This document shows, piece after piece, positions 23,626 through 64,000 of a stretch of DNA of 64,000 nucleotides. Under the pieces are notes generated by a model. It saw only the letters and a list, made by a program, of their open reading frames with translations, made no database searches and was not told the DNA's origin. The DNA is from Octopus sinensis (lineage: Eukaryota), in contig NC_043000.1 of the NCBI RefSeq assembly GCF_006345805.1, forward strand, positions 62,001 to 126,000, given 5' to 3'. Each line of letters opens with the position of its first letter. The stretch's first letter is position 1. Both the position numbers and the translations under genes were made by a program.

Positions 23626-24075
23626 GTATATATATATATATAGTTAGTTGCCCGTTTATATATATATAAAGGTTAGTTGCCCGTTTTCAGTTTCAATTTT
23701 CCTGTAACAAGCGGATTATAAGTGGATAAAACAGTGTATTTGGCTTTAGAATAACCCTCTTTAGCCCTTAATTATATGATGTATATTGCAACCGTAACGG
23801 TTTTTTTAAATATACTGCCCACGCTTCCTGATGAATTCCTTTGCTGTAGAGTAAGGGACTTCATCCTATATTGCTTAGTAGTAAACTCGATGCTTGCTAC
23901 AGGAGGACTGGTAACCATTACAATTTGTAGCGGCGAAAGGTCTGGACGTTGTTTTCTGAGGCTGACCAAAGAATTTTTATTTTTAGATATAAATGATGTA
24001 CTCAAGTGTAGTTATGTTTTTAGCTTGTGCTTTTTCCATGATCATACGTGAGTATTTTATTTATATCCCATCGAA

Positions 24076-24143
24076 ATTTCTACTGAAGAAGGAATATATC
24101 TTTTTTTATAAGATTAAGTCCGAAATTGATTCAATATAGAGAT
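24076..24143 (+). ncRNA. Type I hammerhead ribozyme, copy 1
   Basis: Stem I ATTTCTA/TAGAGAT; core CTGAAGA plus an extra A; stem II GGA..ATCTT/AAGAT..TCC; GAAA; stem III ATTGA-t-TCAAT; AUA^ site after 24136. Confidence 0.85.
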
Positions 24144-24570
24144 AACGAAATTTAAATTTTCTAAAGGTTAGTTGCCCGTTTTCAGTTTCAATTTTCCTGT
24201 AACAAGCGGATTATAAGTGGATAAAACAGTGTATTTGGCTTTAGAATAACCCTCTTTAGCCCTTAATTATATGATGTATATTGCAACCGTAACGGTTTTT
24301 TTAAATATACTGCCCACGCTTCCTGATGAATTCCTTTGCTGTAGAGTAAGGGACTTCATCCTATATTGCTTAGTAGTAAACTCGATGCTTGCTACAGGAG
24401 GACTGGTAACCATTACAATTTGTAGCGGCGAAAGGTCTGGACGTTGTTTTCTGAGGCTGACCAAAGAATTTTTATTTTTAGATATAAATGATGTACTCAA
24501 GTGTAGTTATGTTTTTAGCTTGTGCTTTTTCCATGATCATACGTGAGTATTTTATTTATATCCCATCGAA

Positions 24571-24637
24571 ATTTCTACTGAAGAAGGAATATATCTTTTT
24601 TTATAAGATTAAGTCCGAATTGATTCAATATAGAGAT
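24571..24637 (+). ncRNA. Type I hammerhead ribozyme, copy 2 (GAAA->GAA deletion)
   Basis: Reads CCGAATTGA instead of CCGAAATTGA. Confidence 0.7.
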
Positions 24638-25064
24638 AACGAAATTTAAATTTTCTAAAGGTTAGTTGCCCGTTTTCAGTTTCAATTTTCCTGTAACAAG
24701 CGGATTATAAGTGGATAAAACAGTGTATTTGGCTTTAGAATAACCCTCTTTAGCCCTTAATTATATGATGTATATTGCAACCGTAACGGTTTTTTTAAAT
24801 ATACTGCCCACGCTTCCTGATGAATTCCTTTGCTGTAGAGTAAGGGACTTCATCCTATATTGCTTAGTAGTAAACTCGATGCTTGCTACAGGAGGACTGG
24901 TAACCATTACAATTTGTAGCGGCGAAAGGTCTGGACGTTGTTTTCTGAGGCTGACCAAAGAATTTTTATTTTTAGATATAAATGATGTACTCAAGTGTAG
25001 TTATGTTTTTAGCTTGTGCTTTTTCCATGATCATACGTGAGTATTTTATTTATATCCCATCGAA

Positions 25065-25132
25065 ATTTCTACTGAAGAAGGAATATATCTTTTTTTATAA
25101 GATTAAGTCCGAAATTGATTCAATATAGAGAT
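25065..25132 (+). ncRNA. Type I hammerhead ribozyme, copy 3
   Basis: Same sequence as copy 1. Confidence 0.85.
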
Positions 25133-25559
25133 AACGAAATTTAAATTTTCTAAAGGTTAGTTGCCCGTTTTCAGTTTCAATTTTCCTGTAACAAGCGGAT
25201 TATAAGTGGATAAAACAGTGTATTTGGCTTTAGAATAACCCTCTTTAGCCCTTAATTATATGATGTATATTGCAACCGTAACGGTTTTTTTAAATATACT
25301 GCCCACGCTTCCTGATGAATTCCTTTGCTGTAGAGTAAGGGACTTCATCCTATATTGCTTAGTAGTAAACTCGATGCTTGCTACAGGAGGACTGGTAACC
25401 ATTACAATTTGTAGCGGCGAAAGGTCTGGACGTTGTTTTCTGAGGCTGACCAAAGAATTTTTATTTTTAGATATAAATGATGTACTCAAGTGTAGTTATG
25501 TTTTTAGCTTGTGCTTTTTCCATGATCATACGTGAGTATTTTATTTATATCCCATCGAA

Positions 25560-25627
25560 ATTTCTACTGAAGAAGGAATATATCTTTTTTTATAAGATTA
25601 AGTCCGAAATTGATTCAATATAGAGAT
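25560..25627 (+). ncRNA. Type I hammerhead ribozyme, copy 4
   Basis: Same sequence as copy 1. Confidence 0.85.
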
Positions 25628-26939
25628 AACGAAATTTAAATTTTCTAAAGGTTAGTTGCCCGTTTTCAGTTTCAATTTTCCTGTAACAAGCGGATTATAA
25701 GTGGATAAAACAGTGTATTTGGCTTTAGAATAACCCTCTTTAGCCCTTAATTATATGATATATATATATATATATACATATATATATGAATGACATTAAT
25801 TTCTTAAAATCATGCGTTGATTATATGTAAACATTTGCCACAAAATTTTTAGTTAGATTTTGGCGGTGGGGTTAGTTGATTATATCGACTCTAGTTTTCA
25901 ACTGGTACTTACCTGATCGACTCCGAAAATTCACACAAGCTACTGGTCGACCCAGAGTTAAAGGAGAAGTGAGTTGCCTATAGTGCCATGCATTGGGATT
26001 GAACGCGAAATTATGTGATAGAATAATTAAGTATTTAACTAATTGAGACTTTTGATTCCGAACATTGCAATTTTTTCGTTATACGAAATTCTGGTGAGAA
26101 ATCAAATGAAATCTTATACCCGAGAGAGGAAATAATTTGATTAATCGCCAGAATTTCATTTAATTTGGAGAAGTACAATAGGGAAGGTATTGACATGATA
26201 TATTATGAAAAAGTTGGGGGATAAACAAATTCACAGATCACTTAATTTATGGTGTTGCAACAATGTATAACAAGGAAATACTGGAGTTAGTAACGGGAAA
26301 TACCTATGTAGTTGTGTCTATTAAATACGATTTGTCATTGATAATTATAATTCATTTTCGAGGCGGTGCTTTATCATGATCACAGTTTATTGACTATAAC
26401 AGGTAAAATGCGTATTTGAATAATGATTTCTAATTTAAGACGAAGACCAACGATTCGGGAGATGGGAACAGACTATTACAAACATGGGTAATCTTTTTTT
26501 TTTCCGAGATGTGGGCCGCATGAGACATGCCTCATCGTCAAGTGTGCCGCTCTACTAAAAAGAAAGATAATATCTTGTCAGGCCTGCCATTAAGAAGGTC
26601 TTGTGGACCGCAAGTTGTCCATGGCTTGTCTATTACAACGTGTCCGTTTTTTACCCCGGAAGTAGGAAAGACAACGTTGATGTTGGCGGGATATGAATTC
26701 AAAGTATGAAGATCCGAGACAAATACTGCAAGCAATTTCTTCGGCGCTCTAACAACCCAGCTAATCAGCCCCTCTATAAGTGTGTGGATAATTGTGTGGT
26801 ACCATCCACAGGACTGTTGATTACATGTTTTATATAGCTAAGAGTGTCTACATTCCTCTAAACCCCAGCTCGATCAAATATGATAGGTGATTAAACATCT
26901 CGTACTACTGTAATAATATAATAGGGATTAGTGTAATCG

Positions 26940-27372
26940 TAGCGGCAGACGAAATACCTATTTCTTTACTACCCACAAGGGGCTAAACATAGAGGGGACA
27001 AACAAGGACAGACAAACGGATTAAGTCGATTACATCGACCCCAGTGTGTAACTGGTACTTAATTTATCGACCCCGTAAGGATGAAAGGCAAAGTCGACCT
27101 CGACGGAATTTGAACTCAGAACATAACGGCAGACGAAATACCTTTTCTTTATTGCCCACAAGGGGCTAAACTTAGAGGGGACAAACAAGGACAGACAAAC
27201 GGATTAAGTCGATTACATCGACCACAGTGTGTAACTGGTACTTAATTTATCGACCCCGGAAGGATGAAAGGCAAAGTCGACCTCGGCGGAATTCGAACTC
27301 AGAGCGTAGCGGCAGTAGAAATACCGCTAAGCATTTCTCCCAGCGTTATAACGTTTCTACCAGCTTACCGCC
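26940..27372 (-). mobile_element. Tandem Tx1-tailed SINE A units
   Basis: Two ~183-bp units, each followed by GGTATTTCGTCTGCCG. Confidence 0.85.
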
Positions 27373-37045: not shown

Positions 37046-37630
37046 GGCGGCGAAATGGCAGAAAACGTTAGCACGCCGGGCGATATGCTTAGCGGTATTT
37101 CTACTGCCGCTACGCTCTGAGTTCAAATTCCGCCAAGGTCGACTTTGCCTTTTATCCTTTCGGGGTCTATTAAATAAGTACCAGTGACGCACTGGGATCG
37201 ATATAATCGACTTAGTCTGTTTGTCTGACCTTGTTTGTCCCCTCTGTGTGTAGCCCTTGTGGGTAGTAAAGAAATAGGTATTTCGTCTGCCGCTACGTTC
37301 TGAGTTCAAATTCCGCCGAGTTCGACTCTGCCTTTTATCCTTTCGGGGTCGATTAAATAAGTACCAGTTACGCGCACTGGGGTCGACATAATCGACTTAA
37401 TCCGTTTGTCTGTCCTTGTTTGTCCCCTCTATGTTTAGCCCCTTGTGGGTAGTAAAGAAATAGGTATTTCGCCTGTTTTTATGTTCTGAGTTCAAATTTC
37501 GTCGAGGTCGACTTTGCCTTTCATCCTTTCCTGGTCGATAAATTAAGTACCAGTTGCGTACTGGGGTCGATGTAATCGACTGGACCCCTCCACAAACATT
37601 TTGAGCCTTGTGTCTAGAGTAGAAAAGAAT
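37046..37630 (+). mobile_element. SINE A triple: head, body+Tx1 tail twice, then body+standard tail
   Basis: GGTATTT restarts at 37094, 37277 and 37463. Confidence 0.9.
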
Positions 37631-40979: not shown

Positions 40980-41575
40980 TTGGTTTCAAATTTTAGTAAA
41001 AGACCAACAGTTTGGGCGGAGGAGGGTGGGAGTTAAGTTGATTACATCAAGCACAGTAATCAACTGATGTGTTCTTTTTTTATCGACTTCAAATGGATAA
41101 AAAACAAAGTAGATCCCAGCGGAATTTGAACTCAGAACGTAAAGACATACGAAATACCTATTCCTTTATTACTTACAAGGGGCTAAACATAGAGGGGACA
41201 AACAAGGACAGACAAACGGATTAAGTCGATTACATCAACCTCCAGTGCGTAACTGGTACTTATTTATCGACCCCGAAAGGATGAAAGGCAAAGTCGACCT
41301 CGGCGGAATTTGAACTCAAAACGTAGCGGCACACGAAATACCTATTTCTTTACTACCCACAAGGGGCTAAACACAGAGAGGACAAACAAAGACAGACTAA
41401 CAGATAAAGTCGATTACATCGACCCCAGTGCGTATCTGGTACTTAATTTATCGACCCCGAAAGGATGAAAGGCAGAGTCGAACTCGGCGGAATTTGAACT
41501 CAGAACGTAGCGGCAGACGAAATACCGCTAAGTATTTCACCCGGCGTGCTAACGTTTCTGCCAGCTCACCGCCTT
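40980..41575 (-). mobile_element. SINE A triple (two Tx1-tailed units inside an older copy)
   Basis: GGTATTTCG restarts on the - strand at ~41342 and ~41157. Confidence 0.85.
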
Positions 41576-41696: not shown

Positions 41697-41768
41697 GCGT
41701 CGGTGGTGTAACGGTTAGCACGGTTGCCTTCCAAGCAGTCGGTCCGTGTTCGACTCCCGGCCGACGCA
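41697..41768 (+). tRNA. tRNA-Gly(TCC), 72 nt
   Basis: Acceptor GCGTCGG/CCGACGC; D-arm GTGT/GCAC; anticodon loop CTTCCAA (TCC 41730-41732); T-loop TTCGACT; one T.C mismatch in the T stem. Confidence 0.9.
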
Positions 41769-42386: not shown

Positions 42387-42454
<68 letters not shown>

Positions 42455-42590
42455 TAAATGATTTTAGTTTTCATTCACTTTCAGAATTACACCAATTAGT
42501 GGCTTGGAGTTTAACTGCTCTTTCTAATGAGTCAGATATCCTACTTTTTGGTTATCTCTTATGTGTTTGAATGTACATTGTATTCTTCTC
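42455..42590 (+). mobile_element. Fragment of the ~475-bp hammerhead element family
   Basis: TTCAGAATTACA..TTGGAGTTTA.CTGCTCTTTCTA.TGAGTCAGAT matches the reverse complement of 63480-63575 and, partly, 58200-58252. Confidence 0.7.
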
Positions 42591-48020: not shown

Positions 48021-48236
48021 AAAATAAGGTACAGAAAATTAACTACATATAGATATAAGCCCTAAAATTTGAATTTTAGTATAGTTTAGTATTTTTCACA
48101 TATTTAATATATAGCCTTACATTGGTTCATGGCTGACCCAGTGAAATTTTGCGGCACATTAGTGTATAGTGGGATATCTGGGAGCTTCTGTTTTCCAGGT
48201 TTAGTCCATCTTCAGTTTATAAGTATAACCAATCCG

Positions 48237-48334
<98 letters not shown>

Positions 48335-48357
48335 CATATCTATCTATCTATCTATCA

Positions 48358-49262
48358 AGTACCAGATATACAAAAGGGTTAGAGATGCAGGAAAAGCCGT
48401 AAAATGTGACAACCGATGCAGACTTCGTGGAGATCACACTGAAGATATTACCCACATCAAAAGCAGTTGTCTGAAACGGTCATCACGGTATTATCTATCG
48501 ATGAGACATGATGTTTTATCCAAGACACTCTATAATGAAATCCCTGAGAAGGATAATCCCGAAAACAAAGAAACAAAAACCCACAATATGGTAAAAGCCA
48601 CAGCCACTCATAATAAAAAGAAATACTGGTGGAATGACCCAGTGAAGACGTCAATAAAATGTAAGCACAACAGACCTGATATAATGATTTGGGATAGAGA
48701 AAGAAACTGTGTACAATTGTGGAAATTAACTGTCCAGCGGATGTTAACATAAAGCTGAAGATCAGTGAAAAAGAGAACACCTATGCTGAACTATTGAGAA
48801 ATGTCCTGATACTCTATCCAGATTACAAGTTCAAGTTTATGCTTGTAATTACTGGGGCCCTGGGATATGTAACAAACTGCTTAAATACCAATATTGAAAG
48901 AAGAAAGCTAATTCGAAGACTCTAGATCCAAACCATCACTGGAAATGTAAAGATCTGTAAAACTTTCCAGAAGTTTATCATTTGAATATATATGAGCATG
49001 TCTCGATATGTAACTGTATACATGAGAATACAAACATAAGATGTAAAAATCTACACATACATACATACATACATACATACATACATACATACATACATAC
49101 ATACATACATACATACATACATACATGCATGCATACATACATACATACAAAAATACATTGTTGTGTTGTTGAAATTCCAATGAAGGAATCTTGGATCTAG
49201 TTTAGAAACCGATTCTTTCTCTATTGGCAAGAAATTTTGAAATAAACTGAATGATCACATAC
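48358..49262 (+). mobile_element. R4/Dong-like (restriction-like endonuclease) LINE 3' fragment with 3' UTR
   Basis: Decayed CCHC region CRL..H....C, RHD, HNRPDIMIWD, EI.CP, GALG. The 3' UTR has an internal (CATA)n and a conserved tail shared with the second copy. Confidence 0.85.
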
Positions 49263-52063: not shown

Positions 52064-53095
52064 ATCATTCCTTAGTTTTATTTCACGATTTCTTGCCAAT
52101 TGTGAAAGAAGCGGTTTCGAACCTGGATTCAATGCTCCTTCGTTGGAATTTCAACTTCAACTACAGAGTATTTTTGTTTGTATGTATGTATGTATGTATG
52201 TATGTATGTATGTATGTATGTATGTATGTATGTATGTACGTATGTATGTATATGTGCAGATTTGTATGTTGTTGTATGTATGTATTTTCATGCATATAGT
52301 TGCATATCTAGACATGCTCATATATACATAAATGGTAAACTTCAGGAAAGTTTTATAGATTTTTACGGTTCCAGTGTTGGATTTGATCTGTATACTTCGA
52401 ATTAGCTTTCTCCTTTCTAGATTTGAGAAGCCTAATTTCTCTAGTTTGGTATCTAGGCAGTATGTTACTTATCCCAGGGCCCCAATAATTACAGGTATAA
52501 ACCTGAACTTGTAATCTGGATATAGTAAATGCCGATTTCTCAATAGTTCAACATAGGTATTCTCATTTTCACTAATCTTCATCTCTATGTTAACATCCGC
52601 AGGGCAGCTAATTTCCACAACTGTGCACAGTTTCTCTTCTCTATCCCAAATCATGAAATCATGACTGTTGTGCTTACATTTCATTGAGGTCTACTCTGGG
52701 ACATTCTACTAGTACACCTTTTTATTATGAGTGGCTATAGCAAGGCGGCAATCTGGCAGAATCGTTAACACGCCGGGCGAAATACTTAGCGATATTTCCT
52801 CTGTCAAGACGTCTTGAGTTCAAATTCCGCCGGGGTCGACTTTGCCTTATATCCTTTCTGAGTCGATTAAATAAGTACCGGTTACAAACTGCGGTCGATG
52901 TTATCGACTTAATCCTTTCCCTTAAATTTGAGGCCTTCTGCTTCCAGTAGAAAGGATAAGTGGCTATGGCTTCTACAACACTGTAGGTTTCTATTTCTTT
53001 GTCTTCGGGGTTATCCTTCCGACGGATTTCATTATAGTGTGTCATAGCTACAACATCATGTCTCATTAGTACCGTGATGACATTTTCGGACGACT
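52064..53095 (-). mobile_element. Second R4/Dong-like LINE 3' fragment, interrupted by a SINE A
   Basis: MRHDVVA..YNEIRRKDNPE, KCKHNSHDFMIWDREEKLCTVVEISCPADVN..GALG. Confidence 0.85.
52742..52958 (+). mobile_element. SINE A inserted into the LINE, 12-bp TSD
   Basis: AGTGGCTATAGC at 52730-52741 and AGTGGCTATGGC at 52959-52970. Confidence 0.9.
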
Positions 53096-53643
53096 GCGTA
53101 TGATGTGGGTGATATATTCGGTGTGTGTGTGTGTGTATGTATGTATGTACGTACGTACGTGTGTATGTATAAGTGCCTATTTTTTTGTATGCGTGTATGT
53201 TGCTAGGCTGCCTGTTTTTCAAAGCACAGAGAAGGACCTCTGTGTATTTGTATTTATGAGTGAGAGGTATTTTTTTATTTTCTAAGTATAACTGTTTGTG
53301 AATATGATCGCCAGATGTCATTAAAGTTTTTTATGGCACTTTATAGATATATGAGTTTTTGGGTTTACTTGTATGAGCGCGCGTTTCTCGTATATGGAAA
53401 TGTGTGTGTGTTTATGTGTGCGTTTGTGTGTGCGCGTATGTGTGTGTGTGTGTGTGTGTGTGAGTAGAAAGGGTTGTGTGGGACGAATAATTATTGGAGG
53501 AATTCATGCCAGTGAAGTGACGAAAGTGTGACTTATTTTAAGAGACGCAATGAGGAATATCAATCTTGTTCATGTAATTTAGCACCAAGTCATTTCTGTC
53601 CAAGCTGATCTTCGATTAATGGAGTTCTAACTGTGAATATCCG

Positions 53644-56755: not shown

Positions 56756-57431
56756 CCACACATACAGGTATTCAAGTATTTGTGTGTTAGGTTCAGGGCA
56801 AAGCTTTGTCATATTTTACAAATATCAAGAGGAAAGACAGAAATAGACAAACCCGATTTAAGTGTTTGTGTACCAAAAGAAAAGCATAGATTCTCAATAG
56901 AGAAGCAAATTTCATTATCTGAGCTGCTTTCAAAAATAACATTGCCTTGACCCGTATGACATGTTACCTTGATTTATCTCATACACTTCCAACATTATCA
57001 ACGAAAGATTAAGTTATTGTAGTAGTTATTATCTCTTCTGGTTCTGTTTATAAGCGTTACATAGGCTGTTGGGTTTTATGAGTATATTTTTGCACATACA
57101 GACTCACTCGATTGTTGTTGTTTTTTTTTTCTTGAGCTTAATTTTTTTTCATTCCTAGCATTTTGAAAAACTTGAGAAAAATTTATGTTTTGTTAAATAA
57201 GAAAATCTTTTTTTCTTATTTTAGTAATTTGACTGCGATCGTGCTGGAGCACCACCCTGAATGGTTTTAGTCGAATAAATCGACACCTGAGACTTTTTTT
57301 TATCGTTCTAGTCTTGTGCTAGAAAGAGCAGTAGAAGAGTTTTCTACTGCTCTTTCTAGTACTAGGCTTTCCTATTTGGAAGCCTCTTAATGTGTTCTAA
57401 TGGACAAGATATTTCTATGTGAATAATATAT

Positions 57432-57850
57432 AGGCGCAGGAGTGGCTGTGTGGTAAGTAGCCTGTCTACCAACCACATGGTTCCGGGTTCAGTCCCACTG
57501 CGTGGCACCTTGGGCAAGTGTCTTCTACTATAGCCTCGGGCCAACCAAAGCCTTGTGAGTGGATTTGGTAGACGGAAACTGAAAGAAGTCCGTCGTATAT
57601 ATGTATATATATATATGTATGCGTGTGTGTGTTTGTGTGTCTGTGTTTGTCCCCATAGCATTGCTTGACAACCGATGCTGGTGTGTTTGTGTCCCCGTCA
57701 CTTAGCGGTTCGGCAAAAGAGACCGATAGAATAAGTACTGGGCTTACAATAGAATAAGTTCCGGGGTCGAGTTGCTCGATTAAAGGCGGTGCTCCAGCAT
57801 GGCCGCAGTCAAATGACTGAAACAAGTAAAAGAGTAAAAGAGTAAAGAGA
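57432..57850 (+). mobile_element. SINE B, full length, inserted in the first direct repeat
   Basis: The empty site is visible in the second repeat (AATATATA|GTCTATT). Confidence 0.9.
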
Positions 57851-58091
57851 GTCTATTGACTTTGTTTTTTGTGCTAGGCCACTGGTAATAATAATTTCTA
57901 TAATTTTTATTACCCTAATATTATTTATTATGTTTAAATAATTTTTGATAGATTTGTTCGAAAATTTTTACCGGCATCCTCTCTGTCGCCGGAAATATAC
58001 TGCATCAACGCGGTTGTTTTGAAAAATTAGAATATACAGGCAACCGGTTTACACGCGAATCTAGTTGTGTGTATATTTGAAATCTAAAGGC

Positions 58092-58163
58092 TTCCTACTG
58101 ACGAAACTAGCCTCAGTAAATATTTTTTTTTACTGGAATGAGTTAGAAACCATGGTCTAGGAA
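58092..58163 (+). ncRNA. Type I hammerhead ribozyme
   Basis: Stem I TTCCTA/TAGGAA; CTGACGA; stem II AACT..CAGTAAA/TTTACTG..AGTT(A); GAAA-CCATGG-TC^ after 58157. Confidence 0.85.
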
Positions 58164-58414
58164 CTAAATTAGATGGTAAACGTGTTTAATTTTCAATCCT
58201 TTCGAGAATTTATCCATAATTAGTGGTTTGAGTTTCCTACTGCTCTTTCTAGCACAAGGCTTTCCTATTTGAAAGCCTCTTAATGTGTTCTAATGGACAA
58301 GATATTTCTATGTGAATAATATATAGTCTATTAACTATTTTTTTTTGTTCTAGACCACTGGTAATAATAATTTCTATAATTTTTATTACCCTAATATTAT
58401 TTATATATATGTAG

Positions 58415-58467
<53 letters not shown>

Positions 58468-63323: not shown

Positions 63324-63328
<5 letters not shown>
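63116..63328 (+). mobile_element. RTE-clade LINE extreme 3' end inserted in (TA)n
   Basis: NRWTHAVDEWYPRERKRPPGRP..RW; tail (AAGTGAT)2. Confidence 0.8.
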
Positions 63329-63369
<41 letters not shown>

Positions 63370-63384
63370 ATATCATATAATTAA

Positions 63385-63860
63385 TAATAAATTTTAGGGT
63401 AGCAAAAAATTCTAGAAAAATTCTCCGCTACCAGCGGGTCACGTGACAAAGAAAAAAAAAGTCAATAGACTATTAATATACATCAAACAATAAGGGATGG
63501 CTATAATAGGACATCTGACTCACTAGAAAGAGCAGCTAAACTCCAAACCATTAATAGTTGTAATTCTGAAATGGAAAGAGAAATAAAAATGTTTACCCTC
63601 TCGTTTCTGGACTATGCATAGTTTCGGCAATCTTTCGTAAATAAATAAAATAAAATAAAATTTATTTAACAGTGGCGTTGCACTCATTAGCAGAAAAGCC
63701 AAGGACTACCATATATTCACAAGGCGATAACGAGCATGCCTCGAGTCTATATGCTATAGACTTTCAAAATCAACCGCATTTGCGCGGTTCTCTCAGCAGT
63801 AAATATAAACTGCCGATTTAATTTCAAAATTAGTCAAAAAAATCATTAATTAATAGATTT
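63385..63860 (-). mobile_element. Diverged monomer of the ~475-bp hammerhead element family
   Basis: Shares GCGGTTG.TTTGAAA, CTGCTCTTTCTAG, GTCTATTGACTTT and TACCCTAA with 57850-58403. Confidence 0.75.
63604..63696 (-). ncRNA. Type I hammerhead ribozyme with G5A substitution (probably inactive)
   Basis: - strand: TTTCTG-CTAATGA-GTGCAA...TTGCC-GAAA-CTATGCATAG-TC^-CAGAAA. Confidence 0.75.
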
Positions 63861-64000
63861 TCAGAATTAATTTACGCAATTCATGTTGAGATCGTTCTGT
63901 ATCATCTGTTTCGTTATCGTATTCTTTATCTTATTATCTATTCATAATAGCTTATGATCATCGTGTATTACTATCCTTTACGTCTATCTATAGTCATAAT

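Follow-up and report, generated by a model that had tools for sequence, protein, structure and literature searches.

Non-LTR retrozymes have been described in coral, Mytilus and axolotl (PMC7229834) and in vertebrates (bioRxiv 10.64898/2026.07.22.740005). In the accessible parts of these reports, they are non-coding, low-GC units with one type I hammerhead, found as short tandems and solo copies at many candidate loci and coexisting with Penelope-like elements (PLEs). PLEs themselves carry hammerheads in a pseudo-LTR followed by a 'tail', and the sections available of three accounts (PMC4209133; PMC11167929; PMC8557442) describe a short stem I, a palindromic stem III, an extra base after A9 in some copies, opposite-strand pairs, two reverse transcriptase (RT) start sites, inverted 5' arms and (TA)n targets. 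The two-end anatomy is the signature of the PLE tail (PMC8557442, as far as its text is accessible). According to the available part of PMC11167929, the PLE RT starts in vitro at the two internal sites that define the tail and both strands are nicked; insertion of an anole PLE in vitro did not require cleavage by its ribozyme. Covariation among hammerhead-bearing repeats also has a precedent, the Dolichopoda pDo500 satellite, where the accessible portion of the report gives a conserved core and compensatory stem changes across repeat copies (PMC2837043).

Here we analyse a 64,000-nt stretch of the Octopus sinensis genome (the window) and one repeat in it, copy B, whose family shares the features listed above for metazoan retrozymes and for PLE hammerheads and tails. 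The family differs from metazoan retrozymes in unit length (447-475 nt in genomic copies here versus ~170-400 nt for the units reported as RNA in what is available of PMC7229834 and bioRxiv 10.64898/2026.07.22.740005), in a long stem II with an AU-rich extension, and in that no homologous PLE terminal repeat was found for the unit. Unlike PLEs as described in the accessible texts, it has no ORF, and its tail measures 80-90 nt instead of 30-40 nt. Whereas pDo500, in the part of its report at hand, is a tandem satellite compared across species (PMC2837043), this family is dispersed, was studied within one genome and was judged against a tree-aware null. Copy B is very probably a decayed genomic copy of a protein-free unit of ~450-475 nt with one type I hammerhead, from a family that likely spread as a non-LTR retrozyme by means of a PLE enzyme. 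Literature searches, with most subscription papers and supplements outside their reach, returned no paper describing octopus hammerheads of this family, which does not imply novelty.

Results and discussion

Copies of the unit in the window

Copy B is a non-coding unit of ~465 bp, and no ORF of at least 150 aa was found across the window copies (Table 1). The 279 bp upstream of it have no full-length match elsewhere in the genome, and this unique 5' DNA was rejected as a second repeat arm. Copy B departs from the type I hammerhead core at G5, and its hammerhead fold is not its minimum-energy fold (z -0.17). With E values of up to 10 allowed, Rfam recognised no hammerhead near copy A or copy B, and there was none among the 150 of 228 matches listed for the window.

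Table 1. Positions of repeat copies, ribozyme parts and a tRNA gene in the window.
Feature	Position	Strand	Remarks
tRNA-Gly(TCC) gene	41697-41768	+	ARAGORN and Rfam
5'-truncated fragment, third subfamily (C)	42451..42590	+	without ribozyme; (TA)n flanks; ends near site 1
Preceding subfamily A piece	57337..57433	+	ends at 3' site 1; ~415-bp insert parts it from main unit
Subfamily A unit (475-bp period) and tail	57850..58417	+	ends at site 2
Type I hammerhead motif, copy A	58092..58163	+	unpaired A before G12; 10.1-11.1 pair absent
(TA)n target microsatellite at 3' end of copy B	63327..63379		
Subfamily B unit (copy B), ~1.04 monomers	63377..63861	-	5'-truncated against unique DNA; 3' end is site 2 (distal fixed 'tail' end)
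Hairpin immediately before 3' end site 2	63398..63435	-	compensatory changes between subfamilies
Type I hammerhead motif, copy B	63604..63696	-	predicted cleavage between 63610 and 63609
Stem I arms, copy B	63696-63691 and 63609-63604	-	
C17, copy B	63610	-	
Stem III, copy B	63611..63622	-	12-nt perfect palindrome; monomer 4 bp and tetraloop, dimer fully paired
Palindrome inside stem III, copy B	63621-63612	-	
GAAA block, copy B	63625-63622	-	
Core CUAAUGA, copy B	63690-63684	-	
G5A core substitution	63688	-	private to copy B; G in 138/142 copies

The preliminary description had treated copies A and B as homologous, and they are: the two units align end to end with 59.8% identity over 594 columns (blastn E 4e-17), and their Smith-Waterman score is 237, whereas 200 dinucleotide shuffles reached 125 at most. 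It had also reported different stem sequences that still pair. Both motifs are indeed present; only four of the six stem I pairs that it quoted are conserved in the family, and in stem III, where the palindrome is kept, the actual difference is one double change plus a 4-nt insertion. A further fragment, noted at 42455-42590, is likewise homologous (80% identical to copy B over 42451-42579) but is confined to the part 3' of the ribozyme; its CTAATGA at 42524 aligns with a downstream conserved block, not with the hammerhead core. Copy A is itself non-canonical: the base of its stem II lacks one A that most of subfamily A has. The insert that separates its main unit from the preceding piece is presumably SINE-like.

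Donor-like and acceptor-like motifs ~75 nt apart occur in the window at 63511-63585 (minus strand) and in homologues, conserved across subfamilies. A PLE-type intron running from the donor-like motif after the ribozyme to the acceptor-like block ~75 nt on was considered and is unsupported, since no spliced-form junction was present in the fetched loci and no skipping joint in the contigs of four runs.

A dispersed family of at least six subfamilies

Five DNA queries over the 2.72-Gb genome gave 2198, 2328, 1355, 2986 and 1477 first-look candidates, sets that overlap and are not copy numbers, and the best 40 candidates per query were scored. From 150 loci we retained 142 hammerhead copies (160 long matches minus 11 unparsed, two duplicates and five mis-anchored rows). 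The copies form a dispersed family of at least six subfamilies; identity is 56-82% between subfamilies and ~86-92% within them. Unit lengths (periods) are 475, 465 and 447, and the GC content of conserved columns is 31-34%. Two strongly diverged units at L183:2104-3020, 58-67% identical to the other subfamilies, represent a further subfamily outside the sample.

Covariation supports selection of the hammerhead fold during propagation

Because the copies share ancestry, covariation was scored against a tree-aware null of our own design, R-scape-like but not R-scape, in which the substitutions of each branch are reshuffled among columns. In the sequence-only alignment (n=142), pair I.1 is A-U in 83 copies and G-C in 56, I.2 is U-A in 105 and C-G in 30, and I.4 is C-G in 98 and U-A in 34; in stem III, pair III.3 occurs as C-G, U-A and U-G (68, 57 and 6 copies) and III.4 as A-U, G-C and U-G (100, 29 and 9). 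The outer stem I pairs I.5 and I.6 are not conserved, being paired in 103/142 and 106/142 copies. Compensatory events numbered 11 on the flank-only tree and nine on the full tree, against null means of 1.4 and 0.7 (0/300), and rose to 15 and 13 once one gap was shifted to bring stem II into register, a step that favours the structure. Summed G/APC reached 623 versus a null maximum of 154-159. When all column pairs were considered, none reached E<0.05 individually (best 0.07-0.31); with the comparison limited to the 14 proposed pairs, five did.

A second sample comprised 29 whole monomers, hand-picked from 72 to span subfamilies. Here, unguided RNAalifold recovered stems I-III, which showed 7.8 compensatory events versus 0.47 expected (0/500), and sliding stems I and III as a control reduced their pairing from 95% to 20-39%. 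The sole passing helix outside the ribozyme was the hairpin before the 3' end, with three events versus 0.28 expected (0/500) for pairs chosen from the data. RNAalifold also predicted a long-range helix and two small helices beyond the ribozyme, none of which passed against the tree-aware null (148, 500 and 95 of 500). Stem III is palindromic across several variants, with one or two central mismatches in one subfamily.

The 11 invariant core positions had no change on internal branches with at least five leaves, versus 1.43 per flank column, and 27 changes on terminal branches. Each is kept in 136-142 of the 142 copies, and 117 are fully canonical (C3 U4 G5 A6 N7 G8 A9 / G12 A13 A14 / A15.1-U16.1 / H17), values of core conservation inflated by a motif parser that tolerated one change per core block. 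Altogether, the family motif has three stems around this core, with stem I open and the pairing supported by covariation, and reads as a type I hammerhead.

These results support selection of the fold during propagation, as the preliminary description had argued from the compensatory changes between two copies; the signal consists of ~8-11 independent events between subfamilies, not of 142 copies. It is very unlikely that the paired changes arose without selection, by template-switch correction of short inverted repeats or by descent from a few subfamily founder events. Such an origin would fit the small number of independent events (about eight on the 29 monomers) and the arrangement of the stem III arms as adjacent palindromes, and the failure of the long-range helix shows that relatedness can mimic covariation. 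However, the stem I arms lie 60-90 nt apart and still show ~3 events versus 0.19 expected (1/500), G-U wobble intermediates are present in several copies, and internal branches show no change in the unpaired catalytic core even though the subfamilies are 56-82% identical. This phylogeny-aware test thus confirms that selection acts on the ribozyme of a retrozyme in the source copies, and that an inserted copy is free to decay.

G5A is a late change in copy B

G5A is the standard inactive control for hammerheads (PMC4075628 and PMC4027429, in their accessible parts). Its presence in copy B had been ascribed to decay after insertion, and this simple reading is supported by the alignment: A at position 5 is found in two of the 142 copies and falls among private substitutions, 15 of them in copy B, that are strand-symmetric in three subfamilies (p 0.29-0.88), so that G5A probably dates from after insertion. 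The other locus with G5A has a second arm in which G5 is retained. Contigs of four runs, whose RNA origin is a guess, read the G5 allele wherever the position was covered. RNA editing or cDNA deamination as a source of G5A was rejected on the strand symmetry of the private changes.

The base of stem II is labile

The 10.1-11.1 closing pair of stem II is described in the available part of PMC3088659 as the most conserved pair after 15.1-16.1, with one natural U-U reported, and G10.1-C11.1 is called 'highly conserved' in PLE hammerheads in what is accessible of PMC4209133, PMC11167929 and PMC8557442. In the octopus family, by contrast, it is paired in 49/142 copies (three arrangements, copy B included); 47 copies have A-A, 22 an extra A before G12, and 24 other forms. 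About half of the copies are without a canonical pair, in lineages that kept spreading. Copies with the extra A fall into two distinct clades when the tree is built from flanks only, and one of these clades subsequently exchanged a stem II pair. This A-A or extra-A lability differs from the U-U variant given for axolotl in the portion available of PMC7229834. Literature searches for A10.1/A11.1 variants, with subscription papers and supplements mostly outside their scope, found no A-A case.

Insertions carry the anatomy of Penelope-like elements

Insertion ends were counted at 84 loci (90 minus six overlapping or duplicate). Among 129 arm ends, 48 lie at site 1, 56 at site 2, located 80-90 nt downstream, and 25 elsewhere, and 97 of the 104 ends at fixed sites run into (TA)n. 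Because the fixed ends coincide with, or lie close to, the ends of the queries, the main-arm counts are biased, the inverted arms and (TA)n flanks less so. The 5' ends are variable, and arms extend up to 2.1 units (loci of ~3.4 kb). When both ends of a head-to-head pair are at fixed sites, 20 of 21 pairs use one of each: the 37 pairs comprise 20 with site 1 and site 2, one with site 1 twice, none with site 2 twice and 16 with a non-standard end. Target-site duplications are obscured by the (TA)n flanks.

The family thus shows the footprint of retrotransposition (fixed 3' end, 5' truncation, dispersal) and the anatomy of PLE-mobilised copies, with partial tandem and inverted arms and the tail at one end only. 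Its small non-coding unit with one type I hammerhead, tandem or solo, is that of a non-LTR retrozyme, and by its sequence characters the family joins the animal non-LTR retrozymes (PMC7229834 and bioRxiv 10.64898/2026.07.22.740005). The preliminary description, which was right on fold selection and on decay, had missed both the element class and the Penelope-type insertion anatomy. Tandem junctions do exist, as they would in a DNA-level satellite that grew by unequal crossing-over and inherited the ribozyme passively; the end structure contradicts such an origin (dispersed loci, at most 2.1 units per arm, fixed 3' and variable 5' ends, inversions), which makes it extremely improbable.

In the proposed retrozyme cycle, source copies would be transcribed as more-than-unit RNA, which the hammerheads would cut to unit length, probably aided by dimer pairing of stem III, whose palindrome is a known basis of dimeric cleavage (PMC4209133, accessible part); the unit may then form a circle. 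For insertion, the RT-endonuclease of a PLE would make nicks in both strands of TA-rich DNA and begin cDNA at the two internal sites. If only source RNAs with a working fold found new subfamilies, compensatory change would be expected between subfamilies and random damage within. The insertion ends tie a protein-free unit to the Penelope tail mechanism; neither this link nor selection in source copies followed by free decay is new in kind.

A candidate partner enzyme

The genome also holds a young PLE family (L156 at G000:C1665:153000-162900, and L126-L155; 936 candidates, 98-99% identity among the matches listed) that encodes RT, a zinc-finger-like linker and GIY-YIG and targets (TA)n; we take it from its motifs to be Neptune-like. 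An autonomous member has a tandem unit of ~3975 bp (RT E 3.5e-8; GIY-YIG weak at E 0.005) and the same two-end, (TA)n, inverted anatomy as the retrozyme, with ends 42 nt apart. It carries its own 196-bp terminal repeat, distinct from the retrozyme unit, and its own minimal hammerhead, recognised by eye. We found no terminal repeat homologous to the unit in an autonomous PLE; that of the element examined is different.

Two loci join the unit to PLE sequence: in L047 it is joined in frame to an ORF with RT and GIY-YIG, and in L014 to the 3' part of a related PLE. The joins (L121:6132-6644 and L014:1505-2457) lie at microhomologies, with the same polarity in both. They are the only two loci with the ORF joined, as one-off junctions, and no RT and GIY-YIG ORF was found between repeats of the unit in the loci analysed. 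The young PLE or a relative is a candidate for the partner enzyme, and only a candidate, as the joins could reflect either template switching or deletion between neighbours that share a (TA)n target.

The joins also bear on whether the unit is instead the pseudo-LTR and tail of an autonomous PLE family, its copies being 5'-truncated PLE insertions. Both junctions are as such a family would leave them, tail and inversion anatomy are alike, and the accessible part of PMC4209133 reports truncated PLEs with hammerheads paired on opposite strands at distances of 100-700 bp. Yet of 30 loci of the PLE joined in L047 a single one carries the unit next to the ORF, where the two meet at a microhomology, the young PLE has a terminal repeat of its own, and arms longer than one unit run on into another unit, not into an ORF (58/129 exceed 1.05 units); we therefore consider it unlikely that the unit is a PLE end.

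With a separate retrozyme as the preferred reading, we tentatively propose that the family may be a natural hammerhead series in which G10.1-C11.1 is dispensable, though this is the less probable outcome. The A-A and extra-A forms would have spread, gained compensation in stem II and remained active or been assisted by the RT protein; the 3'-end hairpin would serve Penelope RT recognition in trans, and the two unit-PLE chimeras would be template switches that name the partner enzyme. Both the candidate partner PLE and the natural core variants, which form a panel differing at the base of stem II, can be tested directly in vitro.

Other repeats in the window

A 495-bp tandem of 4.2 units at 23667-25765 belongs to a young family with 968 candidates; the matches listed are 96-100% identical and lie in inverted as well as tandem arrays. 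Every unit bears a type I hammerhead motif of its own (near 24077-24144), in which A9 is followed by an additional A and stem III is palindromic. From its sequence, the tandem apparently represents a retrozyme family distinct from that of copy B. A second CUGAUGA, accompanied by strong hairpins, lies at 23820-23950. Tandem units of ~184 bp from a dispersed repeat occupy 26943-27325, 37094-37581 and 41079-41526. Finally, ORF fragments at 48108-48752 (plus strand) and 52725-53330 (minus strand) presumably derive, judging by motifs, from elements resembling restriction-like-endonuclease non-LTR retrotransposons.
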